From: Owenia fusiformis
Taxonomy: Eukaryota
Direction: 5' to 3'
Length of the DNA: 64,000 nucleotides
Assembly: GCA_903813345.2 (NCBI GenBank)
Contig: CAIIXF020000001.1
Span: forward strand, 23,188,001-23,252,000
Below the pieces are notes generated by a model. The model worked only from the letters and a program-made list of their open reading frames with translations, had not been told where the DNA came from and did not search any database. Each line of letters starts with the position of its first letter. Position 1 is the first letter of the stretch. The translations under genes and the position numbers were made by a program. Below, one piece after another: positions 9,479-61,593 of this stretch.

Positions 9479-9481
9479 CAC

Positions 9482-11230: not shown

Positions 11231-12776
11231 AAAATCATAAGATATCAAAGATTACATTTTTTAACAAAATATGGCAGTGATTTTGAATTGAGTGGCCATA
11301 TTGAAAATTTCCTCTAAGCAAAGGTCTTACGCCAATACAACATCAGCCTATAACATTTGTAACAAATCACAAGGACAAACAAATGGACAGATGACCAAAC
11401 GCTTCTCTATATCCCTTCAAACTTCGTTCAATTACCTTCTTTTCCATACTACATGTAAATCTACTTCACTGATCTATTCTTAGCTTGGCTAATTGAATGA
11501 AAATTGCCATTCTTTCACTGAGTATTGAATGAGGCCCAATGATTAATAATGGCCGGACGAGGAGCCAGCTATGTCTATAGAGGAAGACGAATTAAAGCAT
11601 CCTGGAAATGAAGACTTTGACTTCTACCTATTTGTGTATAACATCTTTACATTTAGGCACATGATCAAGAAGATTTTTGAAAAAATGCTATACCTGCATA
11701 TGTTATTGTCTGTCTAACTACATGTATTTTGATGAAAAAAAGTTTTGGGTTTTTCCTTGTATTCAAGAGGTGAAGACAATTATAAGGAAATCTTCACTTA
11801 ACTCATTTATCTCAAAGATTACTTCTGATATGGACAGATCATATCAATACTGATATCGGAAAAAGATAAAGATATGATTTGGGTGTGCAATTCCTTATGA
11901 GTTATTTCAACTGAAAGTTCTTCAATTATTTGGTCCCATTTTGGAATTTCTGAAATATGATTTTTTAATTCCTAATATTTCATCCACCCAACCATATTTG
12001 ACTGACTTTTACCAATGATTGACTCAGAGGTTATCCTATTAAAGGAAGATGCTCTTGACAAAAGGAAATTATAGCTCAGATATGATAAATAGGATTCTCT
12101 TAACTCTGACAATTCAATTTAAGATAAGGTTGGGTGACCTCAGAAAGCAATTGTATCCATCACAATATGGAATACTGGACATTGATCAAACAAAGTCTAA
12201 TCAACAGAAAACTTTCCATTTCAAACCCAACCAATTCAACAGTGGATAACAATGCAACGCTTATCATTTCATGCAACTAAGATGAAATTGGAAAATCTGA
12301 AGACATGTAAATATATAAGACACATATGAAAAGAAAAATTTGTAGTTGTAAATGTTTTTTCCAGAGTTTTCCTTGAAGATTAATCACAAGCAATGTCAGG
12401 TTGAGAAAGTGAAGCCCCCAGATGTGTTGCATAACTCAGTGATCTTCTCAAATCAACTTGGTGCAAAAATCACATTTTCACAATTCTGACCAACATTCAT
12501 TAAAATATGCCTATTTTTCAAAATTTTTCTAATTTTCATGTGGGTGCATATGAGTATTCAGATAGGCGTAAACATATTTTTTAAATCTCAAGGAGGTGCA
12601 GAACCAACCTTTTGAACCAATATTTCAAAGCTGGGGGGATCATTGGGATAAGTATCAAAATGAGAATGGCATATACATATGATATAACAAACCATTCAAC
12701 TAAAATAATGTCATTGTCGCCACAGCAGAACAACAGCCACCCAACAGAACACCCAAGATTACACTAATTTACAAAA

Positions 12777-35509: not shown

Positions 35510-37230
35510 AGACATTCAGGTATTCTGACCAACCTGAATGCATGCAGGTATGCTGGCCAATTAAGACACAGCAGGTGTGCTGGCCTACCTAAAACATGCA
35601 GGTGTGCTGTCTAACCTAAGACATGCACGTACGCTGACCAACCAAAGACATCCAGGTGTGCTATCCAACCTAAGACAATGCACATACGCTGACCAACCAA
35701 AGACATCCAGGTGTACTGGCCAATTAAGACACAGCAGGTGTGCTGTCCAACCTAAGACAATGCACATACGCTGACCAACCAAAGACATCCAGGTGTGCTG
35801 GCCAATTAAGACACAGCAGGTGTGCTGGCCAACCTAAGTCCAACCTAAGACAATGCACATACTGTGACCAACCAAAGACATCCAGGTGTGCTGGCCAATT
35901 AAGACAATGCACATACGCTGACCAACCAAAGACATCCAGGTGTGCTGGCCAATTAAGACACAGCAGGTGTGCTGGCCAACCTAAGTCCAACCTAAGACAA
36001 TGCACATACTGTGACCAACCAAAGACATCCAGGTGTACTGGCCAATTAAGACACAGCAGGTGTGCTGTCCAACCTAAGACAATGCACATACGCTGACCAA
36101 CCAAAGACATCCAGGTGTGCTGGCCAATTAAGACACAGCAGGTGTGCTGGCCAACCTAAGTCCAACCTAAGACAATGCACATACTGTGACCAACCAAAGA
36201 CATCCAGGTGTACTGGCCAATTAAGACACAGCAGGTGTGCTGTCCAACCTAAGACAATGCACATACGCTGACCAACCAAAGACATCCAGGTGTGCTGGCC
36301 AATTAAGACACAGCAGGTGTGCTGGCCAACCTAAGTCCAACCTAAGACAATGCACATACTGTGACCAACCAAAGACATCCAGGTGTACTGGTCTACTAAG
36401 ACACAGCAGGTGTGCTGGCCTACCTAAGACATGCAGGTGTGCTGACCAACCAAAGTCATCCAGGTGTGCAGTCTAAACTAAGACATGCAGGTGTTCTGTC
36501 CAACCTAAGACAGTTACATACAGGTGTGCTCTCTAACCTAAGACATACAGGTGTGCTGTTCAACCAAGGACATCCAGGTGTGCTGTCCAAACTAAGACAT
36601 GCACGTCTGCTGACCAACTAAATACATCCAGGTGTGCTGTCCAAACTAAGACATGCAGGTGTTCTGTCCAACCTAAGACATGCAGGTATGTTCTCTAACC
36701 TAAGACATGCAGGTGTGCTGTTCAATTTAAGATGTGTAGGTGTGCTGTTCAACCTAAGACAGTTACATGCAGGTGTGCTCTCTAACCTCTCTAACCTAAA
36801 ACATGCAGGTGTGCTGTTCAACCAAAGATGTGTAGGTGTGCTGTTCAACCTAAGACAGTCACATGCAGGTGTGCTGTTTCACCTAGGACATGTACGTAGG
36901 TGTGCTCTCCAACCTAAGACATGCAGGTGTGCTGTTCAACCTAAGATGTGTAGGTGTGCTGTCCAACCTAAGACAGTCACATGCAGGTGTGCTGTTTCAC
37001 CTAGGACATGTACGTAGGTGTGCTCTCCAACCTAAGACATGCAGGTGTGCTGTTCAACCTAAGATGTGTAGGTGTGCTGTCCAACCTAAGACAGTCACAT
37101 GTAGGTGTGCTCTCCAACCTAAGACATGCAGGTGTGCTGTTCAACCTAAGATGTGTAGGTGTGCTGTTCAACCTAAGACAGTCACATGCAGGTGTGCTGA
37201 ACAACCTTAGACATACGGGTGTGCTGTTAA
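35510..37230. repeat. ~28-30-bp satellite with higher-order repeats
   Basis: CAGGTGTGCTG...AACCTAAGACA monomers; 175-bp and 118-bp periodicities visible as identical repeated ORFs. Confidence 0.9.
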
Positions 37231-39939
37231 AAATTCAATTGAATACTGTATAAGTGGTATTTGATCCGGGTGGTTTAATTTTCCTAACCTGGGAAAAATT
37301 AGGCAATAGGCAAATTAAATGATTAGGCAAAATCACCACTTGTGCAGTAATGTCAGTAAAAGACGATTGGAAAGATTTATGTCGGCAAATGACATATTAG
37401 ATTTATGTCACCAAAAGACAATTGAATGATGTCAGTAAAAGACAATTGAACAGATTTATGTCAGCAAATGACAGATTAGATTTATGTCACCAAAAGACAA
37501 TTGAATGATGTTAGCAAAAGACAATAGATTTACGCCAGCAAAGGACAACAATTTCTATCAATGAATGAAAGACAATAGATTCAAATGTCCCTGAAATAAG
37601 CTGCAATGATATACACACATAAAATTCACACTGGTACTATATTCAGACCTTGTTCAGCAGACCATAAAACAATCTGATTTAGTTGCTAAGGACTCCTGGA
37701 GCAAATCACCATTTAATATCATTAACGTGAGGGTAAATCCAGGTTGAACACACGCTTGTCAAAGTATCGACAAATACATCATTCGTCCACTTACCTTGCT
37801 ATGTATGTAATAGCCACTATCCTCGATTATTATTACAAATCCGTGATGGGTATAGAACACGTTATATGGGCTGTTTGTTCTTATAGAATATTACTTGAAT
37901 TTATTAGTACTTGTTCTTATTCCCTAGGCACACTTCAGACAGCTGCCATCCTAACCACATCTTAACTCATATGATTTAGATATGAATTACTTTAACCAAG
38001 AGCTGGTACTGGCTCGTAGAATTGTTCAAGCTGATGATAAATTAATACCTAGTATAGCTGAACCAATAAGCCGTATATTACTCTGCCGTGAATCTTGTAT
38101 CTTCTCTGCTATGTAAAATAGGTGTAAACAGTGTATATCCTTTGATAACAATGCCCATTGGCAGATTTCATCAATTTTACATTTCCTATTGATCTCCCTC
38201 TCTTAGCTTCACGTAGGGTAAAATTCCATCATGGCATATAGAATCAATACGATACAGCTTTCAGCCTACTCATGAACCACTCAATTTTTCCCTCTACAGA
38301 TCATGTGACTGTCATTGACCAATCAGGCACTGGCATTTAATATACCAATCTTATCAATTGTGGGATAGAGTGATATATTTTTGTTTTTCAATCTGTTTGT
38401 TATGTAATGAAACGTTTGCAATTGTTTTGTAGTGTAACTTATAATTAAGGAACATTATAGAGAGGTTCAATGACATCATCACCATAGAGATCCAATCAAC
38501 AATTAGTTAGTATTTTCACCTGAGATTACACCTGGGACCACAGGTCTAGTTTCATCTTGATAACAAAGCCTTATATAGCATGACAGGTGACAAAATTCCA
38601 GGAAACCTGCAAGCAACAAGGGAGTAATAGCCGATGCTTGTAAAATAATATATTAACGTATATTTCAGTTCTACACAGGATGTTCAATAGGTTCTGTTTA
38701 AAAGGCTATTTAACTTAATCATCACTAAATCTATTCAGGCCCTGTATTTTGAATGTGGTGCTGCACCACAGTCTAAAAGCCTAGCGAGAGCCCTGCTACT
38801 TGAAGATCTAGATGGCATGCATTTTAAAGATACAGTATAGCACAATCTAAGTATTTCTGAGTTCCAGTCAGTCTTCGTATGTTGTTTAAACGAACGCTAT
38901 CTTTTACAAAGTTAAATGAAAAAGTAAAATCTTTCAGTTTGTAATGATTTTAATTGCTTATTCTATGAACATACTTCAGTTCATTTAATCAATCATTTGA
39001 TGCTTACTCAAAAACCCATCTGAATGTAAGAGGTCAGCGACTTATTAATTCCATTGATTATAAACGTTGCTCTATGAGGAGGTTAATTAGAAATATAGAT
39101 TTTTATTCCACATTAGTAACGCAGGTTATTTAAGGGCATTGTTCTTTGATGCGAGAATCTTGAAACACAAGAAGTCAACACCTGAGTATTAATTAATAAT
39201 ACGTCTGTAGGTAATACGAAATAAATTATTTAGAGTTGATTTACAAATTAAGGTGTTTGACTAACAGAGGGTGTAGAGGTGCTTGTTAACCTTCACAATT
39301 TCACCAAGAGTGTTTGACTAGGACACAAGGCCTTGTTTTATAAAAGTATTCATCAAATGAAGTGTTCAACTTACGAAGTGTTCAACTTTAGAGGTGTTTG
39401 ACTTATGCAAGTTTTAACCTACAGAGGTGTTTAACTTTTGTATAGATGCTTTAATTACATAGGTGTTTGACTAACAAAAATAACTTACAGAGGTGTTAGA
39501 CTTAAAGAAGATTAAATAAATAAGTAAGATTAACTTGACCTCTATAAAACAGAGCACTATCTCTATCATCACCTGCATGGAGTAAATCACACCAAACATA
39601 ATCTAGAACGCTCATCCAGGACTTAATGTGAAATCAATACACTGTATAAAACCAATTGATGAACAGAAAATTAGCTATTATATCAAAATTAAGTTCTGAT
39701 TTCTCCCTTTATCCGATCAGATTATGTGGAATCATTGAGCAGATCTGGCATGCTTTTGTGAAGCAAAAAGTTCAATGATAAATTACCCTTTTAACTAATA
39801 ATAATAAAGATACTTTGAAAGCATTCGATGTCTCTCAAGAGTGAACTATTTGATGTGGAGGACTGTTAACCCAAATTAGAGCACTCGCAACTAAAATGAA
39901 ACAAGGACATAACTGTTAATTTAACATGCTAAATGACAC

Positions 39940-45545: not shown

Positions 45546-46197
45546 TCAATGTTTCAGACATCTGTCTATAAAATCATAGCACTGCTTCACATAAACCTCT
45601 GGGTGGGTTCTCATGTGTGAAACATGCCCAGAGTCCTCCCAACAGATACTGGAGACCTGAACTCGTAGGGATTTTCTATGTGCTATAACCTCGTCAACAT
45701 AACTGGACTCTGTGATATCATCAGCAGTGGAATACAAGAACAGCGACGGCCATCTTGATTGACAGTTGCGGAATCGAGCGTGAAAGCTATGAGCATCTAC
45801 ATCACTTTTTAGTCCAGTCTTACTGATCACAAAACGTAGTAGTACCGTCATAACAAGCCAGCTATAAACAATCATTCCAAATAACCAGCTTATGACAGGG
45901 TTCATGCCAATCATAGAACCTTTAAATGCCTTAAAGGCTGTGCTGATTTTCTTTGGGGCAGGACAACTATCGAAGATTGTTCCGCAAATGTTTAGACTCT
46001 TGTGCTCCTTCAATAGAATGTCTATCATGCTCTGATATAAGATTCCCCCACCGTTACTAAACACATGAAAGAATATCGGGTTTTTATCAAGGCTCAGATC
46101 ATACAAGAGCTCCAATAGTTTTTCAGCTATGGGTTGCATTTTACCGCTTCCAAAAAAAACCTTTTCAGTTGGTGCAGTGTAGCGAATAGTGATTGAC
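45546..46197 (-). CDS. TMEM53: TMEM53 (DUF829, alpha/beta-hydrolase-like) coding exon 2
   Basis: Acceptor TTTCAG|G at 46197, phase 2 matching exon 1. Family motifs IRYTAP, FFHVFSNGG, GTIFDSCP, LFLYSTAD, SGHVSH; hydrophobic segment WLFGMIVYSWLVMTVLLRFVI; TGA at 45548-45546. Confidence 0.93.
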
Positions 46198-46666
46198 CTG
46201 AAATCACAAATTGAAAAAATAAATAATAAGTACATGAAGAAACAGTGTAATCAGTGTTCCCAATTATTCTTCTCACAAAGGAACAACTAAGATGCTCCAA
46301 ATCTCAAGTTTAAAAATGACATAATAAACTCCTTGCGAACATAGACAGCCCTGATACTTTTCATAATGAGGGAAATAGATTTGGGGATATAAAGTAATAG
46401 TATTTTAAGTTTTTTTAGTTTTAGCCCTAAGAAATATCTGGGAGAGCAATGGCCAGGAAACAAAGCTGGACACAAAAGGTCAGCCTTGATATCGGAATCC
46501 AGAAAAATCTCTGGGAGGGAAATGGCTTTGAAACAAGGCGGTACACAAATAGTCAGCCTTGATGTCTAGAGTAAGTCATAGCTATTCAAATGAAAATATG
46601 GGATACTAGTGAAAAATTATAATTTAAAAAGCAACAAGTTGGATAAATTTTAATTTCGAAACTTAC

Positions 46667-47309: not shown

Positions 47310-49008
47310 CTATCTGTTGCAAGACTAACGCCTGGCGTAACCGTCACCATGTTATTTGGTGTTTTTTAAGTAGCGCAAGGATCCTGCCATGACCGTGGTT
47401 ATGTTATCGTGAAAGCCTGGTATAACCGCGACAATGCTGTATTATATTAAAATGCCTGCCATGACCGTGGTAGTGTAATCGTGTAAGCCTGGCGCGACCG
47501 CAACCTTTATATGACATTAATGACCCGTTGCTGTTGGTATTTTTTATGAATAAATCTTATTAATTGATCATTATAGAAAGTATATGCTTTCGAATCGAAG
47601 CTCTTTGAATGAGAGTAGAGATATAGTTTGTTCGCAAATTATTTATGAGTAAAAATTAGGTTTTCGTTGTGAAATTAATACACATTTTTAGTAGTCTTTA
47701 TTTACATATTTAAGGTAGTTAAACACGAAGAAAAATTGTCATTACAGGGTTCTCATGCTACTTTAAATACAACCACGGTCATGAGAGGCCTTGCAACTAT
47801 TGTCACGGTCATACGGGGCTTTAACATTACCACGGTCATGACAGGCCTTATAAGCATTGTCACGGTCATATTAGGCTTTAACATTACCACGGTCATGACA
47901 GGCCTTGCAATAATTTATGATTAGGACTGCTATAACCGTGACAATGTTTATAGAAAAGCCGGGCATGACCGTGACAATGTCATATAGTACTGCAAGGCCT
48001 GGCATGGTCGTGACCATGTAATACAGTACTGCAAGGCCTGGCATGACCGTGACAATGTAATATAGTATTGCAAGGCCTGGCATGGTCGTGACCATGTAAT
48101 ACAGTACTGCAAGGCCTGGCATGACCGTGACAATGTAATATAGTATTGCAAGGCTTGGTATGACCGCCGTGGCAGTGTAATGTAGTATTGCAAGTTCAGG
48201 TATGAAAGTGGTGATGTAGAAATTTATGATTAGGACTACTGCTATAACCGTGACAATGTGTATTGCAAAGCCTGGCATGACCGTGACAAGGTAATATAGT
48301 ACTGCAAGGCCTGGCATGACCGTGACAATATAATATAGTATTGCAAGGCTTGGTATGACCGCCGTGGCAGTGTAATGTAGTATTGCAAGTTCAGGTATGA
48401 AAGTGGTGATGTAGAAATTTATGATTAGGACTACTGCTATAACCGTGACAATGTGTATTGCAAAGCCTGGCATGACCGTGACAAGGTAATATAGTACTGC
48501 AAGGCCTGGCATGACCGTGACAATATAATATAGTATTGCAAGGCTTGGTATGACCGCCGTGGCAGTGTAATGTAGTATTGCAAGTTCAGGTATGCGAGTG
48601 GTGATGTAGGTGTTTAACTACCTTAATTATGTTAATATCAAAATTACTACTAGACATTATATTCACATTATTTCCGCATATTCTAAAATAATTAATCATT
48701 TACACAGAATAAGACAAGTTATTTGTGTCACGCTAATAAACAATTTATTTAAAAGTGGATAGTAAACAAATCACTTAACAAACAACAATAAAAAATTCTT
48801 AAATTAAACTTAAATGCTACGGCCGCGCCAGGCTTCCACGATAACACTCACGGTCATGACAGGCCTTGCAATATAATACAGCGTTGTCACGGTTATACCA
48901 GGCATACAAAATAACACTGCCACGGTCATGGCAGGATCCTTGCGCTACTTAAAAAACACTGAATAACATGGTGACGGTTACACCAGGCGTTAGTCTTGCA
49001 ATAGATAG
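47310..49008. mobile_element. ~1.7-kb foldback-type element with long inverted arms and an internal ~42-bp tandem array
   Basis: CTATCTGTTGCAAGACTAACGCCTGG... is mirrored at 49008, with further inverted blocks at ~47690/48650. Internal GCAAGGCCTGGCATGACCGTGACAATG repeats occur in both orientations. Confidence 0.75.
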
Positions 49009-49768: not shown

Positions 49769-49841
49769 ATGGCTAGCAGTTCTGTCCACGAGTTCTTGAC
49801 AGATGAAGAGGGAAACTTAGAACAAATAATAAACAACCTTG
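49769..49841 (+). CDS. SIX6OS1-like exon 1 (MASSSVHEFLTDEEGNLEQIINNL)
   Basis: ATG in AAAAATGG context; donor G|GTGAGT, phase 1. Confidence 0.75.
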
Positions 49842-52800
49842 GTGAGTCTTAATTGGTAACTTAATTATCCCAGTGAACTCATGCAATATTGTTTGTCTGT
49901 ATATCGCATGGTCATGATAACCAGTTGTGTTGACATTAAAATAGCACACATTAAATGTTGTTGATATTAACACACATGGCACAGGTAGAATAACATACAA
50001 GTAATTTGAATATATTTGAAATATCAATTATCGTAATAAATTTGCCCGTATCTGCCCAACTGCGTACACTTGTCATTTACTATTCCAGAGTTTGAAGTTC
50101 AACAATACATGCAGCTTATTGAGAAGGAGCAACAGCACATAGATGGTGAGTTGTGTAAAGGGGGAATATGTTTCGTAAAAATCGTGGCCCCTTTAATTTG
50201 AAGGGTGTGACTGGCTTAAAGATCAACTTTGGTGCAAATTACATTTTTACACCAAAAAATCGAATTGCCCAGATTTTGAGATTTCGCCATCAAATGTGCC
50301 AAATGAGAGTTTAACAGATTATATTTATGTTAAGATCTCGAGTCATAAATATACATTGGGATTTGGTAGTCCATCACTGGGCCATCATGGTGCTTGACAA
50401 TTTCTAGTCTTTCAAGGGGAAGACAAGTTATCCACCTCCTGTTGTGGGAGGTTTTGCCACTTGTGCCTAAAACCAGTGTAAAGGCTGACCCATTATTTCC
50501 ACTATAATTAGTGAAGTTTGATATATTTGTACAGAACTTCTAAAATATCAACATCATAAGGAACCAATTAAAAATCCACATACTCTTTTCAGTCTTACAG
50601 AAAGATGTTGAAGTTAAACATAGAGAAATAGACTCATTTGAAAAATCTACAGCTGAAATAAATGAAGAAACTAAGCGACTGCATAAACAGTTTGTGTGGA
50701 ACAGAGAAAACTGTGAAAGGTATGTTAACATTGCTGAATATATACATGAATATACATTTTGAAGTGGAATGAATGATTAAATGAAATAGCAATTTGATTG
50801 AATAAATGTAATTTCCTAGCGTTTTATTTATTTTCACCTTTTTAAAACATGGCATATATTGGTCTCATGAGTCATGAGCCATTAATAGCTAACTTTACAT
50901 TTTTATAATGATACTTTTTTATAGCCTCAAGAAAACAACAGCAGTTCTCTCAGAACATGAAGATGCATTGAACAAAAAACTTGGAGAACTCGTTGCTAAA
51001 CATGAGCAGGAAAGGTAGATATTATATTACATTAATAACAAATAATATTTTATAGGGTATAATTTTATATAAATGTGTAGCTGTTTTTCATACAGTTCTG
51101 CATTGTTTTAAAATCTCAATTTGAGATAATGTAAAGTATCAGGCATAATGTAGTCAAAATGCAGACCCCTTGTGTGGTAGGCAAAGTAAACTTTACACCC
51201 CGATTTACCTATCAGAATGAATTATTATCACTTACCAGGTCTCATTACATTACAGAGAGGAGAATGAAGTATTATTACTTACCAGGTCTCATTACATTAC
51301 AGAGAGGAGAATGAAGTATTATTACTTACTAGGTCTCATTACATTACAGAGAGGAGAATGAAGTATTATTACTTACTAGGTCTCATTACATTACAGAGAG
51401 GAGAATGAAGTATTATTACTTACTAGGTCTCATTACATTACAGAGAGGAGAATGAAGTATTATTACTTACTAGGTCTCATTACATTACAGAGAGGAGAAT
51501 GAGGTATTATTACTTACTAGGTCTCATTACATTACAGAGAGGAGAATGAAGTATTATTACTTACTAGGTCTCATTACATTACAGAGAGGAGAATGAAGTA
51601 TTATTACTTACTAGGTCTCATTACATTACAGAGAGGAGAATGAAGTATTATTACTTACTAGGTCTCATTACATTACAGAGAGGAGAATGAAGTATTATTA
51701 CTTACTAGGTCTCATTACATTACAGAGAGGAGAATGAAGTATTATTACTTACTAGGTCTCATTACATTACAGAGAGGAGAATGAAGTATTATTACTTACT
51801 ACAGTGTAGGTCTCATTAAATTACAGAGAGGAGAACGAAGTATTATTACTTACCAGGTCTCATTCCATTACAGAGAGGGGCATGAAGCGGTCTTGTCACA
51901 TTATGAACAACTTTGGGGGAAGTACCAGGAGAAATATGAGAGCTTTGATCACTGTAAGGAACTTGCAGAGAAGAAAGCTGAACTAAGGAGAGTGGAGAGA
52001 ACGATTGAAGAGGCAGATGAAAGAATCACTGATTTAACTGAGCAGATGAATCAACTGCAAACAGAGAGTGAATCAGATGACCCATTGTATGAAAATACAA
52101 ATGATTTTGTTGTCAAAGTGTATCCTTTGGTATCATACAGTATATATCATGTTAAGGTGCTATGGAAGTTAACAGGAAATGACAAAACAGGAAGTGAAAA
52201 GCCATGCTGGATTTTGAAAATTTTTTGAACCAAGATAACAGAGTTCTGTTTGGACCTCCAGTCAGTTTAACTAGTTCCACATATCATTTACATGACCAGG
52301 AACACAACGGAAATGGTAAGAATGACCATAAACATGATGAAATAACCTTTTCAGCCCTCTGAAAATGTGCCTGAAAAACAGCTAAGAGTAGGTGCTCAGG
52401 AAAGGTCACTGAACAGAATCTTTTGACTTTTTCAGAAAATCTGCCCAATATATTGCTTAAAATGATACAATTTAAAAAAATTTGATATCATTCTTAGAAA
52501 AAGAAAAAAATTAAAAAAACTGAATCGAAAATTGATCAATTTACCTTTTTACTACAGCCATTATTGTTTCAGACAATTTTTTAAAATTTTAAAGATTGTA
52601 TCATTTAGAGCAATATATTGGACACGTTTTCTGAAAAAATCGAAAGATTCTGTTCAGTGACCTTTCCTGAGCACCTACTTTTAGCTATTTTTCAGTCACA
52701 TTTTCAGAGGGCTGAAAAGGTTATTTTATTATTTTTATGGTCATTCTGACCATTTCCATTGTGTTCCCAGTCATGTAAATGATATGTGGAACTAGTAAAA

Positions 52801-55800
52801 CTGACTAGAGGTCCAAACAGAACTCTGATATCTTGCTTCAAAAAAATTTCAAAATCCAGCATGGCTTTGTCACTTCCTGTTTTGTCATTTCCTGTTAACT
52901 TCCATGGCACCTTAAAGGTAGTACATTTCCTTTGGTATCATACAGTATATATCATGTTAAAGGTAGTACATTTCCTTTGGTATCATACAGTATATATCAT
53001 GTTAAAGGTAGTACATTTCCTTTGGTATCATACAGCATATATCATGTTAAAGGTAGTACATTTCCTTTGGTATCATACAGTATATATCATGTTAAAGGTA
53101 GTACATTTTAAAATGAACTATCCAATGTGCCATGTACCATCCCAAATGATATATTTCAAAATTACAAATATTACATTAAAATACATGAAGGTATAAGAGA
53201 CAGTGATTGAAATACATTCTTTGAAAGTAAAACCAATGTAGCACATTGTAAAAAAGAATTTATCTTGTCCTCAATCCCCAAAATTTCCATCTGTAAGCCA
53301 AATGAATCTTTGGCTGTTCAACAAGGTAATAATATTCCTCGATGTTCATAATGTGTGGAATTGCATCCACTAAGCAGGTACTACATACATGTATTCAAGC
53401 CTAACTCTTTGATGGTTTTCTATAACTGACTACAGTGCTGAACTGAAGGTTGACATAACTAGACTAGCTCAGGAAGAGGCAAAGTACGAACAAAATCTAG
53501 CTGAAAATGAGGAGACAATAGCTGAACTGAGGAACAAACAGAAGAGAGTGTTGGAGGTATTTAGTTTTTTTTTATATTACATTCATAAATGCAATTCTGT
53601 TAAATTATAGTCAAGAAAAACCTTGACGAATCAATACTGTATTAAAATGACACTGAAAAATCCTAATGTAATATTCGTAAAATAAGTTCCAAGCCCATGT
53701 GCTGTCAGAATTTAGAATGACCTAATTTTTGTTTTTGTCCAAATGTAGTAATTGCAGTATACACATACATATATGTACATTGTTGTCCAGTAAACCCTTC
53801 CGTCTTTTACTGATACATATTATAGTATTATACTATTGTATGTATGACTTAAACTGTACTGCCATATTTCATGACTCTCAGTGAAGAGAAAGCTAGGACC
53901 AGATTTATGATATAGGTAATGTCCAGTTGCAATGTTTACAAACAAATAGAAAATATTTGAAGTTTTCAAATTGAGTAATAAATTAGGATAAGAAACATCA
54001 TGAATCTAGAACCAATATATTTTGATCTCTTTGGTGTGGCATTGAGGGTAGAATTTATTAAAAAGATCTATTGCTATGATTCTAGGAACTTGAACAGCGA
54101 GCCATAGAGGCTGCAGCAATAGAGAGGCAGGCAGAATTAGCCAAAGAGCAACAGGAACAGGCACATCAACAGCAACAAGAAAACACACAACAAATCCCCA
54201 AGCAAATAAAACCCACAAATCCACAACAAACAGAAGGAACTAAACACAATAATCAAGCTGAGGATGATGAAGCTCCAACAAAAGAATCCCACAAGTCTAC
54301 CTCTATGTTTATAACTGACAAAATCCAAGTCACTGGAGCTGCAGTTCCAGTAGCACAGTCAACCAGAGAGGCTACAACAGTCCCAAAGTCGTGTGTTGTT
54401 GAGACCATTGGACCAATGGAGACTATAGTAAGAAGGTCAGTTCCTCCCCAGATCTTCATCCCGCCCTCACCAACTATTGGAACCACGAGGATTGAGCGTG
54501 AAACAGTAAGTCTATTCAGTATCTATAATAATTGTCTGTTCATTTATTTAATGATCGAGAAATTAAGAAGTATAGCTATGGTGTAATTACTTCTTTAAAG
54601 GCAATGAAGTCATTTTCTTAAGTGAATGTGAATTTGATTAGTACTATTCTTAGAAATATCTTAGTTATTTGATTATCTGTATTTGAATATTATATTTAAT
54701 GAGTCTAGAAATATACAATATATACACAACAGTTTATCATATATACACTATATACAACATATTATGCATATAGTAGACCTGAACACTTTGTTTTATGACT
54801 TAAATGATGTACTAGACTGAATAAGTTGACAAATAATTTACATAAACATTTCTTAAAACTGCAGTAGAATTATAATGAAGACATGTAGTAGGTGGATTAA
54901 CAAATTTTTTTCCCATTAAATGTTTTTAGACTAGTGTTATTTAATTTAAGTCCCTATAGCTGCAGTGTCTGCGTCACAATCACACTTCCTCCAAATCCAC
55001 ATTCTTTCCATTTGCATGAATTTTATCTGAAATATAAAGAGAGACATTTACTAAGATGGATCAGAAACCAGTCACTAAACTCATTTATTGGTGACTTGAC
55101 GATTGTAATGATTTTATGAACTGTACATTAAGTTATATTTCTGCTATTGATTTTCTACATTAAAATCATAGTTCTAATACTGATCTTAATGACCTCACAT
55201 GAACGTAAACTAGATTAAAGGAAAATGTCCAAATTAATTTTGAAGGCAAAGTTGTGCTCTTGCAACACATATGCAGCTTGCTTACCTGACTCATTATCCT
55301 GTGGTTGTGCGATATTTGGTTCAGTTTGGGTCCCCTCATCAATGCTTTCAACGGTATCAGTTTGGACGAGTGTCTCAACTGACGTATAAGCAGGGTTTTC
55401 CGTTTGTTCACCATTAACAAGTGTATGTTTTATTTCATATGTCAAGTCCTTGTTAATGTAGTATTTGTATGTAACTACACTGAGAGCTATGAGTGTTATC
55501 ACTATGATTGTAGCTTCGATTGCGATTACAATGACGTAGGTATGACCAGTTCCCTGATCCAGCGCTTTGATATCCTTGGGTGCGGGAGTTGTCAGCTTTG
55601 GGAAGCGACACTGAGTGAAGGCTGAAAAAGATTTTATGAGTAAACATATTTCACAAAATGCATATGATAATGATATTTTAATAAAATAGCTGGTGCAGAG
55701 AAAAGTATTTAAAATGAAAATGATAAGTGAATTTCTTTATCAGATTGAGAACCTTCATCTCAACAATTGATATTCCTATCTAATACTAGAATTATTTTTA

Positions 55801-58800
55801 TCGTATGATCTGTAAAATGAAGCCCTCTGATTGGTCAGTTCTTGTGCTGTACAGATCTGTATTGCTACTGAGATTGTCCCCGTTGATCAGCTCCGTAGCA
55901 ATACAGAAAATATTGGCATGGAGGGGACAATCTCAGTAGCAATACAGAGGATCACACAATAAAAACGTTATTGAATGATTTGAAGTGCAATACAGGATAT
56001 ATTCTGTCTCGATATTCTGTATTGGCACTCGACTTCAATACGGAATTCTCGAACAGAATATATCCTGTATTGCACTTCAAATCATTCAATAACTTATAGT
56101 ATCTCAATCTAAAAAAGATGTTTATCAATATTTTATAACGTCTATTGTATTCAATTTTAATTCATATAAAATTATAATGATACATTGGATAACCTTACAT
56201 GAACATAGAGTTTTCACATTGCCAATTTCAGTGTCACTGCATAGTTTCTGGATTTTTTTCACATCTCTCTCTCCACTTGGCACGCAAAGCTCAGAGCAGT
56301 AATTCGAATATTCTATTCCATTTATGGTACGGACTACCGGTATGTCAAACTTAGCACATGGATCAGGAGCAGCAATTGCTAGAGCCGCCAATCCCAAAGC
56401 ATATATCGGGAAATTCTGAAATATAAATGAAAGAATTAGCCTATCACAAAACAGTTTCAAAATACTTCAAAGTACATGATTCATAATGAGAAATGCACTA
56501 AATATTTCCTTGTATTATTGGAATTGTATTTTTATCAGAATTGCGATTATTTTGACAAATTGTTTCCTTTATTTTCACGAGATATTGACTCACCATCTTC
56601 CTTTGTCGCTTCCTGAATAAAATTAACTTCAATTAAGTTCCATGGTAAGGAAACTATGGGGAAGTTATAGTTTCTTATGAAAGTAACAGGGTGATCCAAA
56701 AAGTACAGTATTCTTTTAAAAGAGGTGATGAAAATGTTATAAAATGTTGCAATGCCTTTCTCAAATCTTTTTATGAGAAATATACACCACATCTAGTTTC
56801 TATTATGAAATCTTTGTCCACCCTGTATAAGGAAATCAATATACTTGTAGATGTGAACTGTTTCATATGAGAGTCCTTGATCTGGGATTTTGAAGGGTTG
56901 GGATTGGTGACTCACCTCTCTGGATGGCTTTCTCCTTTAGGAGATAATGGGATGAAATTATGTGTCTGTTGCTGCTTCATTGTGTCATCTCATTCAGCCT
57001 CACCTACATGTAACAATAAACAAAAAATAAATGAACAAATAACATACAAGCCATTAAATTGCAGATCTCTCTAATATCAAATATATGCATGTTTTTCCCA
57101 ATGTACAATGGATATACATGGTTTCAGAAAGGATTTCCAATGGTTTCTGTTTCTGGTATGATACCAGTTTCTGTATGGTTTCTGTTTTTGCTGCTTTCTC
57201 TATGTATGTGTATATGTTTGCTCTATTGTATCAATAGCAATTTACCCTATCAATTCAATTCTATTCATCAGTAATCTCTGCTTTAGACTATTATTATCTT
57301 ATGATGTATTGAAACTGGAACTGGAATTTTGGATCAATAGCCAGAATGTTATAATGACCTTAGATTGATTCTGATTCACAATTATAAAGTCCAGGTTGTA
57401 TTCTTTTCAGATAGCATTCCAATTCATCTGTAATGACTAGCATGAGAAAGGAGCTAATACTTGTCCTTGATCCCTTGATCACTGTCACAAATTTGGAATT
57501 TTGAATCCTCGGTATCATAATGCATAATGTAAATTCCATTCAAAACTTCCAAACAGTTGTAGTTGTTATAATAAGGTAGCATGTACTTTGTACTTTAATA
57601 TAGTAGTGTATTTTATGTTAATGATATCCTGATAAGTAGGCATTACTTTTTAAACTTGACTTTTGCTCATGTCTCTCTAAATTCAAATATTAACCATAGG
57701 CACTAGTTTGACAGAAAGATGGCAGTAGCTGTATGTCTGTATGTTTACATTATAGACAGAACTGCCATAATTTCTTTTGACTCTTGATATCTATAGGAAA
57801 TATCTATAGGAAATAGGATGGATTATTCTGGCCAGTTATGGTACAGGGTGGTCAAACATAATGAACATAAACCCTACGCACTTTATTTACAATAACTCAA
57901 TTTTCATCCTGTTCTTTTAAACATGTAGTCTATATCTTATAATACACTACATACATAATTAATGTCACCACCAACAACTGACCTCGTAAACATATATTCT
58001 ACAGCTTTATTGCGACTGGCGTGAGGCATTGTTGGTCAGTTTTGTGTCTGTGCTCTGTATTAAAATGACATTTTGTCATTATCGTATTATATACCTTGAA
58101 GGATCCGTTTGATTGTTGCAGAAATTGATTGGTAGAGAAACATACACTTGATCCCACTGAACATTTATTATTTATTATTAACATACTTTTTTCAAATTAT
58201 TCTTTTCTTCATTTACATATATGTTTAGGTCCCAAATTCCCCCCAGCCAATGATTGGACTGCATGTTCCACAACTTAGACACACCAGGATGTCACAGAGT
58301 CAAACAAACAAGTCACACGGTGTTACTGCTAATCAAGTCCCAAGACAGGTAATTCATTTAACCTATCCCTTTGTAAATATAAGCTGGGATCCTCGAAATA
58401 CAATGTATGAAATATATTCATTTGAGATTTGGGCCCACTTTCAAAACAAGTCCCAAAATGCCAACTTTTGGTACAAATAAAAGTCTGCCAGTGACAATTA
58501 CAGTATGTTAGACATGAACATTAATACCAGTAATGTATATTCTACATTGGTTTTAAGATGTTTAAAATTTAGAAATTATTATTAATATAAATTGTCTTCC
58601 TACAGTGGCTGATCCAGAAACTAACAAGGGGGGGAGAAATATTGAGTTTGGAAAAAAAATCCGCACTTGCGTGAAAAAAACTTTGGGCCCCTAAAACCCA
58701 AAATTGGGCCCAAATTTTTAAAAATAAAGGCCAAATTATGCCCCAAAAGGCACATGTCAAAAAGATTACATATGCAAAAAATTGTTTAACTTGATCAAAT

Positions 58801-61593
58801 TAATTGACAATGTTTTAGGGTGTCTGAAAAATATCTTTGTTTACTTTGAAGGCAAAAAGTGTTGGAATAGCAACTCTCTCTACACAGCCATTCAGACCAA
58901 GAGCAAGTCCCTGTATAGCTCCAGTGGCTCCAGTACAACATGTCCCTCATGTACCACCAAGGCCCCAATCAATTCCTTTTTCCAGACCACCATATAACCC
59001 CCCTTCTCTTGGGGCACACTCCATACTGATCAACCCAGCCCGAATAAGTGAACCTCAAGCTGATCAAAGTAGTGCATCTAATGTGTCCATACCATCAAGG
59101 TCTCCCATGATTCAAGCTAGGTCTCCCATGATTCAAGCTAGGTCTCCCATGATTCAAGCTAGGTCTCCCATGATTCAAGCTAGATCGCCCATGATTCAAA
59201 CAAGGTCTCCAGCCCCTAGTCCATCAACACAGATGTATGTACCTTACTCACAAAGTCAGCATCATCAAACACAGCAGCAGAAAATGGAGCAGCCTCAACA
59301 AATGCAACCACAACAAATGCAACAGGCTAAGCAAATTCAACAAGCTCAACAAATGCAACAGCATTATGAGAACCAACTGCAACAACAGCCACCTGTAGAA
59401 CCTACATCACAGAATGAAGCCATTCAACCAATGGGTAGATGTCTTAAAATTGCTTTAATCTTTACATCTACATTTTAAAATTGGTTCCTGCTAAACAATA
59501 TTCCTGCTGAAAATATGTGAAAATTACAATAATGCTCCAATGAAAATGTGAAGATAGATTATACCTAAGTAGTCTGCGCTCTACCAACCCAATGATGTAT
59601 TTTCTGATAAGTCATCTGTCTCTCCTTTGTTTGTTGTAGAGACATGTGATACAGAGGAACCAGTGACACCTGGAAGACCTATTCCAACCACTCCAGGGTG
59701 TAAGTAGAAATAGTTCTATGCTTCATGCATACGTGACCAGATGTAATGTTCCAGTGTTTATCTGCAAATAACAGCATTACAGTCAGTTAAAAAGACAGCC
59801 AAAAAATTAAAATGCACGTTTAAAAATGTAATTGTAACTTCCAAACAGGTCAAACAAGCGGGTAATACAGTGAAACACCTCTTCAAGTGGAGTCCCTAGA
59901 CCAAATGACTTAATGTTAAATGAACCTCTATAAGTAGAACACCTCCAAGTGGAACACTTTCAGAGGTACCACTTAAACATACTTTTACTGTATAAAAAAT
60001 TGTTAAACAGTTGATAATTATGCATGATTGCTTACCAGGTGAGGCTGCAGTGACCCCAGGAGCTAGCCCATCTAGTGAGTTTGACCTTGACAGAGAGCTG
60101 GAGAAGGTCAGGATGCTTGCTGCAGGTTCTCCTGGATTCTCATTCTCAAGCAGACCAATGTTTGAAGGCGACCATGACATGGTAAGTAATGCATGAAAGA
60201 CCTATAAACCATAAAGAACGACAAAAGACCTGAACTTGTGTTAAAGCACTGAATATTGTGTAAATAGTCTAGCTACAAGCCTCAAGGAGTCAATGACCCC
60301 TTCCTTCCACTTCTTAACTACACACCTTCTCACAAAGGGGAGATGTGTAGTGAGGGAGGGGGGGGGCTTAAAGGGCTTGTAGCTTGAAGTAATGTTTGAC
60401 TTACTATTTTGATTTTGTGATAAAATCAATTTTACTATTTTCTGTTGATCTACAGAGTTCACATGGTGGAGAGAGTGATCAGGCTATGCCAACTTCATTT
60501 GGAATTCAGAGCTTCTTCAATATGGTAAGATATTAGTATTGATATGAGCCTCTCTCTTTTGTCAAAATTTCAATATTGGTATTCAAAATATTACTCTTGT
60601 TGGGGTAGATTTTAATGAAACACAACATTTCCCTGTATACATTGCTTCATAAAATTCACTTGACTACATTTCAGAACTCTGGGCAAGAGTCTCCCAGCCA
60701 CCCTCAGACATCAATGCCAGCAGATTCATCTGGGTTCAACTTTATGGCTGGAGGAGGTGAGTTACCTTGTAGTGTGGGGTACCAGTGCCAAGACAGACCA
60801 ATGAATGAAGAAAGAAACCATAGAATATTGATTATAAACATGTTTTGCTAAGTAGATTTTGATAAAGATTTTGGCCTTGTGAGCCTATGGAATCACATAT
60901 TCATATGGAATCACCCAGCTGCCAGTCTTTTGAACTTAATTCATTATTCAGTATTCATCATTTTATTGGTAATTTTCCCTATTGGTCCCAGCTCCTACTT
61001 TTGCTACAATTTGGAGAAATCAGCTTTTTTGTTGGCAAAATATAAGGAATCACCATGCATGGCCATTTTTATGTCACCATCACAAGTGGTGACATGTTGT
61101 CAATTTTCGTTATAGTCTCAAATTTTTTTGTGGATGGTGTTTAGCAGTTGGTGTTTGGTGGTTGGATTCTGTAACAAATCGCAGGTGGTGACATTTTTCA
61201 TGTTGATGGCTTGTTATCTTAATTGGCGAGAGACTGATTCATGATGAGAGTCAATATGCTTCTTATATGTTTTCTTTCTTTGATTCAGATGCATCCAGCA
61301 CCCAGACAGGGTTCAACTTTGGTGGGGAAGCTTCTAACAATAACAGCCAAGGCTTCAACTTTGGTGTTTCTTCACCTTCAGAGACATCTACTTCTTCACA
61401 GTCCATGGCTTCTATATTTGGTGGAGCTCCAACGACAAGTAAACATTCAGCTGGGTTTTCAATCTTTGGCTCTGGTGATATGACAGCCCAGTCCCCTCAG
61501 ACACCTGGAGAGGGATTTAGTTTCAGTTTTGGGGGGCAAATCACTGATAGCCCTGAGGTGAAGGAAAACAGTTCAGGATTTAAACTTTTTTGA
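49769..61593 (+). CDS. SIX6OS1: SIX6OS1/C14orf39-like coiled-coil protein (synaptonemal complex central element), 14 exons, 831 aa
   Basis: Exons 49769-49841, 50089-50145, 50593-50719, 50925-51014, 51874-52119, 53436-53556, 54086-54505, 58229-58348, 58852-59434, 59640-59699, 60039-60181, 60456-60524, 60675-60756, 61289-61593. All GT-AG with matching phases, total 2496 nt. The N-terminal coiled coil (NRENCESLKKTTAVLSEHEDAL; YEQLWGKYQEKYE...LAEKKAE) and the C-terminal SPGFSF/GFSFSFG...GFKLF* resemble vertebrate SIX6OS1 as recalled. Confidence 0.72.
50089..50145 (+). CDS. SIX6OS1-like exon 2
   Basis: ttccag| EFEVQQYMQLIEKEQQHID |GTGAG, phase 1-1. Confidence 0.8.
50593..50719 (+). CDS. SIX6OS1-like exon 3
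   Basis: ttttcag| LQKDVEVKHREID...WNRENCE |GTATGT, phase 1-2. Confidence 0.85.
50925..51014 (+). CDS. SIX6OS1-like exon 4
   Basis: tttatag| LKKTTAVLSEHEDALNKKLGELVAKHEQE |GTAGAT, phase 2-2. Confidence 0.85.
51231..51887 (+). repeat. 47-bp tandem array, ~14 copies, overlapping the exon-5 acceptor
   Basis: CTTACTAGGTCTCATTACATTACAGAGAGGAGAATGAAGTATTATTA units. Confidence 0.9.
51874..52119 (+). CDS. SIX6OS1-like exon 5 (coiled coil)
   Basis: ttacag| EGHEAVLSHYEQLWGKYQEKYE...NDFVVK; ends at the U12-type donor GTATCCTTT. Confidence 0.85.
52156..52911. mobile_element. Kolobok-like MITE, TTAA TSD, ~300-bp inverted arms
   Basis: TTAA-GGTGCTATGGAAGTTAACAGGAAATGAC... / ...TTAACTTCCATGGCACC-TTAA. 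Confidence 0.8.
52915..53109 (+). repeat. 45-bp tandem array (~4 copies)
   Basis: AAGGTAGTACATTTCCTTTGGTATCATACAGTATATATCATGTTA; matches the sequence immediately after the U12 donor. Confidence 0.85.
53436..53556 (+). CDS. SIX6OS1-like exon 6
   Basis: tacag| AELKVDITRLAQEEAKYEQNL...KRVLE |GTATTT, phase 2-0. Confidence 0.85.
54086..54505 (+). CDS. SIX6OS1-like exon 7 (Q/E-rich, then Pro-rich)
   Basis: ttctag|GAA...ACA|GTAAGT; 420 nt open, in frame with ORF 54305. Confidence 0.85.
54980..55026 (-). CDS. Nested gene probable last exon (DKIHANGKNVDLEEV*)
   Basis: Polypyrimidine acceptor ctctctttatatttcag, phase 1, TGA at 54982-54980. Confidence 0.6.
54980..56596 (-). CDS. Nested antisense gene: 200-aa type-I single-pass membrane protein with Cys-rich ectodomain
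   Basis: Coding exons 56596-56594 (ATG at the end of a 19-nt exon 56612-56594), 56415-56199, 55621-55286, 55026-54980. All GT-AG with consistent phases, 603 nt. Signal peptide MNFPIYALGLAALAIAA, 6 Cys, TM YVIVIAIEATIIVITLIALSVVTY, acidic tail ending DLEEV*. Probable upstream exon 57003-56916. Confidence 0.75.
55286..55621 (-). CDS. Nested gene exon: stalk, transmembrane helix and cytoplasmic tail
   Basis: ttttcag|CC TTC ... TCA G|GTAAGC; 336 nt open, phase 1-1. Confidence 0.78.
55857..56093. repeat. Double hairpin element (24-bp and 41-bp perfect inverted arms)
   Basis: 55857-80 pairs with 55924-47; 55967-56007 pairs with 56053-56093. Confidence 0.8.
56199..56415 (-). CDS. Nested gene exon: signal peptide plus Cys-rich domain
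   Basis: tttcag|AAT TTC CCG ... TGT TCA T|GTAAGG. Confidence 0.78.
58229..58348 (+). CDS. SIX6OS1-like exon 8
   Basis: tttag|GTC...CAG|GTAATT; 120 nt, phase 0-0. Confidence 0.75.
58852..59434 (+). CDS. SIX6OS1-like exon 9 (Pro/Gln-rich, RSPMIQA repeats)
   Basis: Lies within ORF 58837-59478; ttgaag|GCA ... ATG G|GTAGAT. Confidence 0.8.
59640..59699 (+). CDS. SIX6OS1-like exon 10
   Basis: ttgtag| ETCDTEEPVTPGRPIPTTPG |GTAAGT, phase 1-1. Confidence 0.75.
59868..59990. mobile_element. Small TA-flanked Tc1/mariner-type MITE
   Basis: TA-CAGTGAAA...TTTTACTG-TA with AACACCTC repeats. Confidence 0.45.
60039..60181 (+). CDS. SIX6OS1-like exon 11
   Basis: ccag| EAAVTPGASPSSEFDLDRELEKVR...GSPGFSFSS...DM |GTAAGT. 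Confidence 0.8.
60456..60524 (+). CDS. SIX6OS1-like exon 12
   Basis: tacag| SSHGGESDQAMPTSFGIQSFFNM |GTAAGA. Confidence 0.78.
60675..60756 (+). CDS. SIX6OS1-like exon 13
   Basis: tttcag| NSGQESPSHPQ...GFNFMAGG |GTGAGT. Confidence 0.8.
61066..61216 (-). mobile_element. Short HINE-family element
   Basis: Reverse copy with ATGTCACCA..TGGTGACAT hairpin and the family head. Confidence 0.6.
61289..61593 (+). CDS. SIX6OS1-like terminal exon (GFxF-rich)
   Basis: ttcag|AT, phase 1; ends ENSSGFKLF-TGA. Confidence 0.85.

Follow-up and report, generated by a model that had tools for sequence, protein, structure and literature searches.

Among described proteins, the single-CRD TNF receptors Grindelwald (Drosophila), Fn14, BCMA and BAFF-R (vertebrates) are small type-I proteins in which the Cys-rich ectodomain, the stalk and the tail are all short. 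The Grindelwald ectodomain, as set out in PMC8024323, has eight Cys, distributed over an X2 hairpin with two disulfides and a C2 module of the form C-x3-C-x11-C-x3-C. PRIMA1, too, is of type I and small; it has one TM helix and only a few Cys in its ectodomain. Kazal domains are built of a hairpin followed by a helix, and the centre of their signature reads Cys-x6-Tyr-x3-Cys-x2,3-Cys. It is common in animal genomes that a gene lies wholly within an opposite-strand intron of another gene, and unproductive splice forms commonly occur alongside productive ones. For Owenia fusiformis, the genome paper sets species-specific genes apart as a class that shows expression dynamics of its own (PMC9977687). 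The nested gene described here may be one of them.

We analysed a window of 64,000 nucleotides of the Owenia fusiformis genome, to which all positions below refer. A sequence-only reading had proposed that an unrecognised receptor-like gene is nested antisense in intron 7 of a SIX6OS1-like gene. Overall we favour, with a probability of roughly 0.6, a nested coding gene for a small single-pass type-I membrane protein which belongs to an orphan family.

Results

The host protein (P0009) is 824 aa long and matches the Pfam profile S6OS1 (PF15676) with 31.3 bits at a gathering cut-off of 27 (E = 1.1e-07). The match covers host residues 40-167, that is profile positions 2-129 of 557; single host exons alone gave no S6OS1 Pfam match. 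Judged by this profile, the host is a gene of the S6OS1/SIX6OS1 family, meiosis-type. Since host exons 7 and 8 flank it, the whole nested gene lies inside host intron 7 (54509-58228), as had been proposed, and nothing unusual was found in the nesting itself. The features are listed below; X1 denotes a run of Logan contigs, whose RNA label is presumed.

54086..54508, plus strand: host exon 7, residues 239-379 of the host protein (100%)
54850..55026, minus strand: exon E, last 15 codons (…DLEEV) and 3′ UTR to at least about 54850 (X1 joint 55026/55286, X1 depth)
55286..55621, minus strand: exon D, C105, T/P stalk, TM helix and acidic tail with NPAY and TQT (X1 joints, sequence)
56199..56415, minus strand: exon C, signal-peptide h-region and Cys48, 68, 72, 87 and 99 (X1 joints, sequence)
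56594..56612, minus strand: 19-nt micro-exon ending in ATG (56596-56594; public annotation)
56916..57003, minus strand: exon B, leader with ATG 56980, at which the annotated 227-aa form starts (X1 joints)
57107..57238, minus strand: exon A, 5′ leader, upstream end open (X1 joint and donor GT; the X1 record covers 57105-57238)
58229..58348, plus strand: host exon 8, residues 379-418 of the host protein (100%)

Four joints are found in X1, each in one contig: 55026/55286 (depth 69.2), 55621/56199 (85.9), 56415/56916 (21) and 57001/57105 (15.6), the last being cut at +2 so that the borders are 57003/57107. All four read CT..AC on the plus strand and thus correspond to minus-strand GT..AG introns. 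Joint 55026/55286 is in addition spanned by one raw read of run X15; raw runs X13 and X14 showed none of the four joints, and the exons are almost uncovered in the three raw RNA runs, of which about 6, 6 and 12 in 100 were sampled. This is a real spliced minus-strand gene of Owenia fusiformis. Two of the three junctions predicted beforehand, 56199/55621 and 55286/55026, are borne out by X1. The third, 56594/56415, is absent among the X1 joints listed; X1 splices 56916 straight to 56415 and skips the micro-exon. Inclusion of the micro-exon is taken solely from the public annotation, and the skipped form is the sole isoform in the RNA examined (X1). Between X1 and the window there are five exonic differences, three of which alter a residue (I53T, A114V, Q123L) and two are silent. 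In this small sample, three non-synonymous differences out of five give no sign of strong constraint.

The coding exons 56415-56199, 55621-55286 and 55026-54980 on the minus strand are phase-consistent and have GT..AG borders. The stop codon in exon E is at 54982-54980, and X1 depth is present in the bins 54705-55026. The micro-exon is flanked by the acceptor ttattcag/G and the donor ATG/gtgagt. Splicing it (56612-56594) to exons C, D and E reproduced the 200-aa protein of the sequence-only reading. Its N-terminus is hydrophobic, it contains six Cys and a T/P stalk, and ENPAY and VQTD/GTQTE are present, as is EEV at the C-terminus. When 56980-56916 is placed in front, the spliced sequence yields CAH1773759.1 (P0004) letter for letter; by tblastn, residues 1-22 of this entry map to 56980-56915 with 100% identity. 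CAH1773759.1 is the micro-exon form and has 227 aa, the 200-aa protein being its residues 28-227. A second annotated form, CAH1773760.1, is a 197-aa partial with which exon D is 100% identical. Both isoforms are unnamed products of the public annotation, which according to PMC9977687 draws on RNA-seq, Trinity, Mikado, Portcullis, hinted Augustus and PASA, and one of the two isoforms has a UniProt entry. The nested gene was thus already predicted publicly and is unnamed, not unrecognised.

As the annotated form opens at the upstream in-frame ATG 56980, the product would be 227 rather than 200 aa long. In the spliced mRNA, Met28, the 200-aa start, is preceded by another in-frame ATG. It is plausible as a start by sequence comparison, since it coincides with the start of the paralogues' signal peptides. 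Upstream of ATG 56980 there are three short uORFs, at ATG 57119 (8 codons, exon A) and at 56993 and 56988 (both tiny, exon B). The micro-exon brings the reading from ATG 56980 back into frame and contributes Met28. In the skipped form the receptor frame has no in-frame ATG, and all that starts at ATG 56980 is a 33-codon ORF which stops before further exon junctions. For these two reasons the skipped mRNA is probably unproductive.

We searched 1.84 billion proteins with phmmer and found as relatives three paralogues from Owenia fusiformis only: P0005 (E = 3e-25, 42% identity), P0006 (E = 1.4e-06) and P0007 (E = 5.9e-05). No relative outside this species was found in that collection. The paralogues are located on contigs of 40.8, 38.9 and 39.8 Mb, the nested gene on one of 62.2 Mb. 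A profile search of the family returned only the four members among 277 candidates. P0004 to P0007 all have an N-terminal hydrophobic signal, the six invariant Cys in the arrangement C-x19-C-x3-C-x10/14-C-x11/12-C-x5-C (spacing 19-3-14/10-11/12-5 in 4/4 members), one TM helix and a cytoplasmic tail; P0007 differs in that about 130 aa are added at its N-terminal side. Further positions invariant in all four are V55, R57, G61, S75, D89, I92, G93, V95 and T97. Because of the paralogue match of E = 3e-25 among 1.84 billion proteins and the invariance of the six Cys, we consider the gene more than a product of chance. Identity to the paralogues is 55/37/35% over the ectodomain versus 40/31/29% over the whole length, thus the ectodomain is the conserved part. 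NxS/T sites are absent from all four ectodomains.

The nested protein has one hydrophobic stretch of at least 19 residues (Kyte-Doolittle 2.71), with the TM helix at about residues 128-152, and likewise in each of the four members the Cys domain is followed by a single strongly hydrophobic segment. The proposed type-I architecture of signal peptide, Cys domain and single TM helix thus holds, also for the paralogues. This cannot be said of the functions read from the tail. NPxY, TQT and a C-terminal [DE]x[VIL] end occur in none of the three paralogues and are therefore not family features. On sequence grounds we are dealing with a lineage-restricted orphan family of type-I membrane proteins which has four members and is apparently species-restricted.

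None of Pfam, the PDB, the ESM Atlas, AlphaFold2 and Foldseek assigned the nested protein to a family, in agreement with the sequence-only reading. With E values up to 10 allowed, a profile of the ectodomain alignment found no match among PDB chains, and the ectodomain alone gave no usable match in the ESM Atlas. The AlphaFold2 models have a mean pLDDT of 46.0, alone and with a 4-sequence alignment, and at an ectodomain pLDDT below 50 they place a beta-hairpin at 54-59/62-67, then helices. Foldseek found no match to the PDB at E <= 0.001, which for a model of such low confidence carries little weight. ESM Atlas scores below 0.9 are leads only; in a third of cases a shuffled protein scores as high as 0.8. 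The best feature neighbour was PRIMA1 (PF16101) at 0.84. Its Pfam match is weak and confined to two of the four members (best E = 0.032), and PRIMA1 was rejected, as the nested protein scores 6.8 bits (E = 7.1) against a gathering cut-off of 38.6. Unlike PRIMA1, the nested protein has no proline-rich attachment domain, and the resemblance is one generic to small single-pass proteins.

Discussion

We suggest that the protein is made and displayed as follows. With the micro-exon acting as a splicing switch, its inclusion would give a precursor of 227 aa (or, from Met28, 200 aa), while the 33-codon ORF of the skipped form, ending upstream of further exon junctions, may direct that transcript to nonsense-mediated decay. 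The precursor would carry a cleavable signal peptide, cut likely just before or within A-P-D-P-C; we infer this site because positions -3/-1 carry small residues in each of the four paralogues. There would follow a domain of about 60 aa with the six invariant Cys, presumably forming three disulfides. The short T/P stalk would come next, then a single TM helix and finally the cytoplasmic tail, acidic and 75 aa long. The most likely role of such a protein would be to present a small binding module, stabilised by disulfides, on the cell surface or within the endocytic pathway. The overlapping tyrosine signal NPAY/YTSV might bring about clathrin-adaptor-mediated internalisation of the nested member, and the tails, which have diverged among the paralogues, may give each its own trafficking or coupling. 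The protein is probably a surface binding protein, a reading, like the term binding module, that is drawn solely from its architecture.

A bolder version is tentative and, in our view, unlikely. Here the ectodomain would be a new disulfide-rich extracellular domain, possibly with a new fold, in a small family of receptors restricted to oweniid annelids. The micro-exon would switch the nested member between coding and non-coding output, possibly in opposition to the antisense host.

The likeness to Grindelwald and the TNF receptors that had been put forward is not supported by the sequence comparisons, and we regard a very divergent single-CRD member of that superfamily, of the Grindelwald/Fn14/BCMA type, as quite improbable. 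Such a receptor would be expected to bind an Eiger-like TNF trimer via a beta-hairpin and then a disulfide-linked helical module. The small type-I architecture agrees with this, and so does the low-confidence model, in which Cys68-x3-Cys72 starts the helical part behind the hairpin; Grindelwald itself is described as hairpin plus helix-loop-helix (PMC8024323). Grindelwald-like receptors have reportedly expanded in annelids, with up to 12 per species (10.1101/2024.07.27.603686, a preprint). Fn14 (0.79), BAFF-R (0.78) and a mollusc cluster (0.79) in which 15-18% of the members carry TACI/BCMA domains are among the ESM Atlas neighbours, but these weak language-model scores fall below 0.9. Yet TNFR_c6, stn_TNFRSF12A, BCMA-Tall_bind, TACI-CRD2 and BaffR-Tall_bind were found in none of the four members (hmmscan, E up to 10), and TNFR-type Pfam models also gave no match to the exon translations or to P0004. 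There are six Cys, not eight, none of them within the predicted hairpin, and their spacing does not fit the Grindelwald C2 module. At the hairpin tip the Owenia family has [NT]-[ILV]-[DN]-G, not the D-x-L type motif given in PMC8024323. The PROSITE TNFR pattern matches none of the four proteins, TRAF2/TRAF6 motifs occur in none of the four tails, and the phmmer search reached no annelid Grindelwald-like protein.

It is slightly less probable still that the locus yields mainly a non-coding antisense transcript within the meiotic host gene, acting via transcriptional interference or as a regulatory RNA, with the protein rarely or never made. The X1 isoform without an in-frame start, the three uORFs, the share of non-synonymous differences and the antisense position within the host intron would all suit such a transcript. 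But an open frame of at least 199 codons over three exons is unexpected for a non-coding RNA, six Cys and nine other positions are invariant in paralogues elsewhere in the genome, and the public micro-exon isoform carries a complete ORF.

Least probable is that the ectodomain is a remodelled Kazal/follistatin-type module minus two canonical Cys, which would make the protein a membrane-tethered inhibitor-like or ligand-trapping one: domain size, six Cys, the order of hairpin and helix, predicted at low confidence, and the invariant core V-x-R-x-[ILV]-[DN]-G-x-x-[YF]-x-[NQ]-x-C-x3-C, with R-to-Y and Y-to-C distances equal to those of the Kazal signature, speak for it, but the invariant Arg stands for the third Cys, the first Cys is one residue too far from this Arg, only half of the six Cys correspond to Kazal positions, Kazal_1 and Kazal_2 (PF00050/PF07648; Pfam, E up to 10) and the Kazal pattern are found in none of the four members, and the ectodomain profile found no PDB chain.

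Neither the orphan family nor the micro-exon bears on a long-standing open question. The 19-nt micro-exon, which carries an ATG and restores the frame, is a neat example of splicing determining whether a transcript codes. Taken together, our results mainly correct the sequence-only reading. What remains is a family of four members whose ectodomain no sequence or structure tool placed. Families of this kind are candidates for a part in lineage-specific recognition at the cell surface, here in an annelid which serves as a slowly evolving reference genome.

A spliced gene within an intron of the host gene

The small antisense gene proposed by the sequence-only reading is real, and that observation was largely right. 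The window sequence, the splice joints of a run of Logan contigs (X1) and, for the micro-exon, the public annotation delineate one multi-exon gene on the minus strand, from 57238 to about 54850, with the following exons.

57107-57238, minus strand, exon A
56916-57003, minus strand, exon B
56594-56612, minus strand, micro-exon of 19 nt
56199-56415, minus strand, exon C
55286-55621, minus strand, exon D
about 54850-55026, minus strand, exon E

Exons C and D and the stretch 55026-54980 of exon E are open, consistent in phase and bounded by canonical splice sites. The micro-exon has the acceptor ttattcag/G and the donor ATG/gtgagt, this ATG being the exact 3′ end of the exon. Joined to exons C, D and E it yields the 200-aa protein that had been predicted. 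We compared the region 53900-58700 with X1, whose label as RNA is a guess, and with three raw RNA runs (X13, X14 and X15).

Splice joints of the nested gene, each a minus-strand intron in one X1 contig
55026/55286, depth 69.2; also one raw read of X15
55621/56199, depth 85.9
56415/56916, depth 21; micro-exon skipped
57001/57105, depth 15.6; cut shifted by +2 to 57003/57107

All four joints read CT..AC on the plus strand and are thus GT..AG introns of a minus-strand transcript. Two of the three junctions predicted earlier, 56199/55621 and 55286/55026, are among them, while 56594/56415 is absent among the joints listed; the fourth X1 record joins 144 nt of exon C directly to 30 nt of exon B and leaves the micro-exon out. 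None of the four joints was found in the sampled parts of X13 and X14. Over the exons of the nested gene the raw runs X13-X15 have near-zero depth with one spliced read altogether, which is uninformative for its expression since about 6-12% of each run was sampled. On the host exons X13 and X14 have the first mate on the minus strand and X15 is mixed. The sole X15 read on the nested gene has its first mate on the plus strand, and because X15 is mixed on the host exons we did not use mate strand as evidence.

The gene is nested as had been described. The plus-strand open reading frame at 54086-54583 matched a single one of 1387 candidates, an unnamed Owenia protein of 824 aa whose exons map in order over 49769-61590 (tblastn on the window). 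Two of them flank the nested gene.

54086-54508, plus strand, host exon 7 (tblastn)
58229-58348, plus strand, host exon 8 (tblastn)

Thus, the nested gene lies entirely inside intron 7 and antisense to its host. The full host protein matches the Pfam family S6OS1 with 31.3 bits (cut-off 27, E = 1.1e-07), a match not obtained from single host exons; a meiotic role of the host gene is suggested by the family name only. Host exon 9 (58849-59442, plus strand) contains a tandem peptide repeat RSPMIQA of about five copies within coding sequence. The annotated host protein is one copy short of the window's open frame (tblastn 94.9% identity, with a gap), which may reflect differing copy numbers in annotation and window or arise from the alignment. 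The last host exon (61207-61590, plus strand) encodes a C-terminus rich in GFNFG/GFSFSFG-type repeats with a weak match to Nucleoporin_FG (E = 0.3).

The micro-exon and the public gene models

The coding capacity of the nested gene depends on the 19-nt micro-exon. When it is skipped, an upstream stop closes the receptor frame, which then contains no ATG, and the ATG at 56980 opens a reading frame of just 33 codons. Inclusion (65 + 19 = 84 nt) brings this upstream ATG into frame, and a start there places 27 more residues ahead of the methionine of the 200-aa protein (Met28). The hydrophobic core is unchanged with either start and the signal peptides of the paralogues begin at the position of Met28, so that both starts would give the same mature protein.

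A query with exon D in a word-indexed protein search returned one protein among 18 candidates, at 100% identity, named 'unnamed protein product, partial [Owenia fusiformis]'. The 90% cluster of this protein comprises CAH1773760.1 (197 aa, partial, first residue two codons into exon C) and CAH1773759.1 (UniProt A0A8S4MYW3, 227 aa). When 56980-56916, 56612-56594 and exons C, D and E are joined in the window sequence, their translation is identical to CAH1773759.1 at every residue. The annotation therefore already holds the nested gene in two forms, the longer one with the micro-exon, and the gene is unnamed rather than unrecognised as had been thought. We infer that the partial CAH1773760.1 is the micro-exon-skipping isoform of X1. 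The sources named for the Owenia annotation include RNA-seq assemblies, curated splice junctions, hinted Augustus and PASA (PMC9977687). Six accession numbers of the four family proteins discussed below were looked for, and no paper of the searched literature mentions any of them.

Several observations point against a strongly constrained and well-expressed gene. The sole isoform seen, that of X1, skips the micro-exon, three short open reading frames (8, 2 and 3 codons) precede the ATG at 56980, and X1 departs from the window at five exonic positions, three of which change residues (I53T, A114V and Q123L). The sparse coverage in the sampled 6-12% of each raw run points the same way.

A four-member family in Owenia

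With phmmer, we searched all 1.84 billion protein representatives and found five proteins at E <= 0.001. One is the partial isoform of the nested gene itself and three are Owenia paralogues of its 227-aa product (P0004), which is encoded on a contig of 62.2 Mb.

Owenia fusiformis paralogues of P0004 (phmmer)
P0005, 223 aa, 42% identity, E = 3e-25, contig of 40.8 Mb
P0006, 171 aa, E = 1.4e-06, contig of 38.9 Mb
P0007 (CAH1788111.1), 407 aa, E = 5.9e-05, contig of 39.8 Mb

The fifth, a metagenome protein (P0008, 304 aa, E = 1.1e-04), was rejected because its repeated motif, in four short matches, covers stalk residues 103-139 alone without the cysteine domain. When longer proteins were searched with a profile built from the four ectodomains, the 277 candidates yielded nothing beyond these four Owenia sequences, and tblastn of the paralogues matched no second or tandem copy within the window besides the nested locus.

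All four members share one layout. A hydrophobic signal at the N-terminus precedes a domain of some 60 aa, which a short linker joins to a single strongly hydrophobic helix; the cytoplasmic tail follows. Six cysteines are invariant in their alignment (C48, C68, C72, C87, C99 and C105; numbering of the 227-aa form), with the family spacing 19-3-14/10-11/12-5, as are V55, R57, G61, S75, D89, I92, G93, V95 and T97. The paralogues are 55, 37 and 35% identical to P0004 in the ectodomain and 40, 31 and 29% over the full length; constraint is thus concentrated in the ectodomain. N-glycosylation sequons are absent from all four ectodomains. The tails are 56-174 aa long, with net charges from -22 to +3. 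The one element they share is a stretch near H216, Q-P-Q-D-x-E-S-D-K-x-H-[AV]-x-G, easily recognised in P0005 and fainter in P0006. A strict regular expression for the family matched three of the four members and missed P0005, and is unusable as a signature in that form.

Two members have features of their own. P0004 has a glutamate, E134, in its transmembrane helix (VIVIAIEATII…, encoded around 55500-55530, minus strand), and the three paralogues have no charged residue there; E134 could hint at pairing with a partner membrane protein. P0007 has an extra N-terminal region (residues 1-130), in which a Cys/His-rich stretch with weak RING-finger matches (Pfam E = 0.26-4.4) precedes the signal-like hydrophobic segment. 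Either two genes were merged in the P0007 model, or the protein is a variant with two TM segments and a RING in the cytosol.

The ectodomain and described families

As the sequence-only reading had suspected, no described family was found to accommodate the protein. Pfam matches stayed below the cut-off for every query (exon pieces, the complete protein and each of the four members), and the weak matches (PRIMA1, TMEM154, RIFIN, KIAA1549, EphA2_TM and others) are driven by the transmembrane segment. Searching PDB by sequence gave a single chance match to a nitroreductase (E = 1.6), and the ectodomain profile gave none. In the ESM Atlas the neighbours of the whole protein were small type-I proteins (PRIMA1, Fn14, BCMA/TACI-bearing clusters, TMEM154 and BAFF-R) at <= 0.84, a range also reached by shuffled proteins. 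The ectodomain by itself had no usable feature match there, and structural matches stayed at TM <= 0.44, to unrelated bacterial and viral clusters. AlphaFold2 reached a mean pLDDT of 46.0 both from the single sequence and with the four-sequence alignment; the transmembrane helix alone is confident, and removing residues with pLDDT < 60 would leave only this helix. Foldseek with this low-confidence model against PDB listed 216 matches, none of which reached E <= 0.001 (best E = 1.2, prefoldin).

The architecture of the protein had been likened to single-Cys-domain TNFR-like proteins such as Grindelwald (Grnd). According to PMC8024323, the eight cysteines of the Grnd ectodomain form four disulfides; two of these belong to one of its two parts, the hairpin X2, and the other part, C2, is a helix-loop-helix with the pattern C-x3-C-x11-C-x3-C. 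The P0004 ectodomain, in contrast, has six cysteines with another spacing and none in the predicted hairpin, and TRAF-type motifs are absent from the family tails. Grnd-like receptors are stated in a preprint to be present in annelids and expanded in Capitella (10.1101/2024.07.27.603686); phmmer over the 1.84 billion representatives reached none of these annelid receptors. AlphaFold2 predicts, at low confidence, a hairpin followed by helices in the ectodomain, and a distant structural kinship with TNFR/Grindelwald is therefore possible. Membership is supported by nothing that we tested. A Kazal module, suggested by a Kazal-like central stretch with Arg where the third Cys would stand, failed the profile tests (Pfam, PDB) and the pattern test.

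The cytoplasmic tail

The earlier reading of P0004 as a receptor drew in part on motifs in its tail. P0004 has NPAY, TQT and a terminal EEV, and none of the three paralogues has any of them; a receptor reading from these motifs is not supported. When the tail was shuffled 20,000 times, NPxY arose in 1.4%, TQT in 6.4% and a [DE]x[VIL] end in 4.4%, any of the three in 11.7% and all three in 0.01%, the last figure overstating significance because the motif set was picked after the sequence was seen. NPAY overlaps a YxxPhi signal, YTSV, which makes an endocytic signal in the P0004 tail plausible; it is not a family property.

Other features of the window

Further elements were observed in and around the two genes.

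55797-56102, between exons C and D, intronic repeat of some 300 bp that contains inverted repeats
55967-56024/56036-56093, its 58-nt arms, 88% complementary
55856-55881/55923-55948, its 26-nt arms, 100% complementary
45549-46250, minus strand, 234-aa open frame with a strong match to DUF829 (TMEM53-like; Pfam E = 3.7e-44)
35700-37250, 9231-9655, 10543-11314 and 47874-48617, long tandem repeats with open frames on both strands, satellite-like arrays
36000-38000, G+C of 0.424, high compared with the surroundings

In all four runs the depth over the intronic element is enormous (word depth > 100,000 in X1; depth 25-77 in the raw RNA reads against about zero alongside), and at 55797/55798 and 56098/56102 hundreds of reads continue into dissimilar sequence. 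It appears to be a transcribed MITE-like element of very high abundance. The DUF829 frame belongs to a neighbour of the host gene, located upstream of it and on the other strand.

Proposed mode of action

We suggest the following for the product of the nested gene. The signal would be cleaved near A-P-D-P-C, and the six cysteines of the ectodomain would form three disulfides. The resulting small binding module could be displayed at the cell surface or in endocytic compartments. The tails would act in a paralogue-specific manner, with NPAY/YTSV driving internalisation of P0004, and the micro-exon-skipped form may be decayed or left untranslated. The nested gene belongs to a family of four type-I proteins, apparently restricted to Owenia, with a conserved but unplaced six-cysteine ectodomain.
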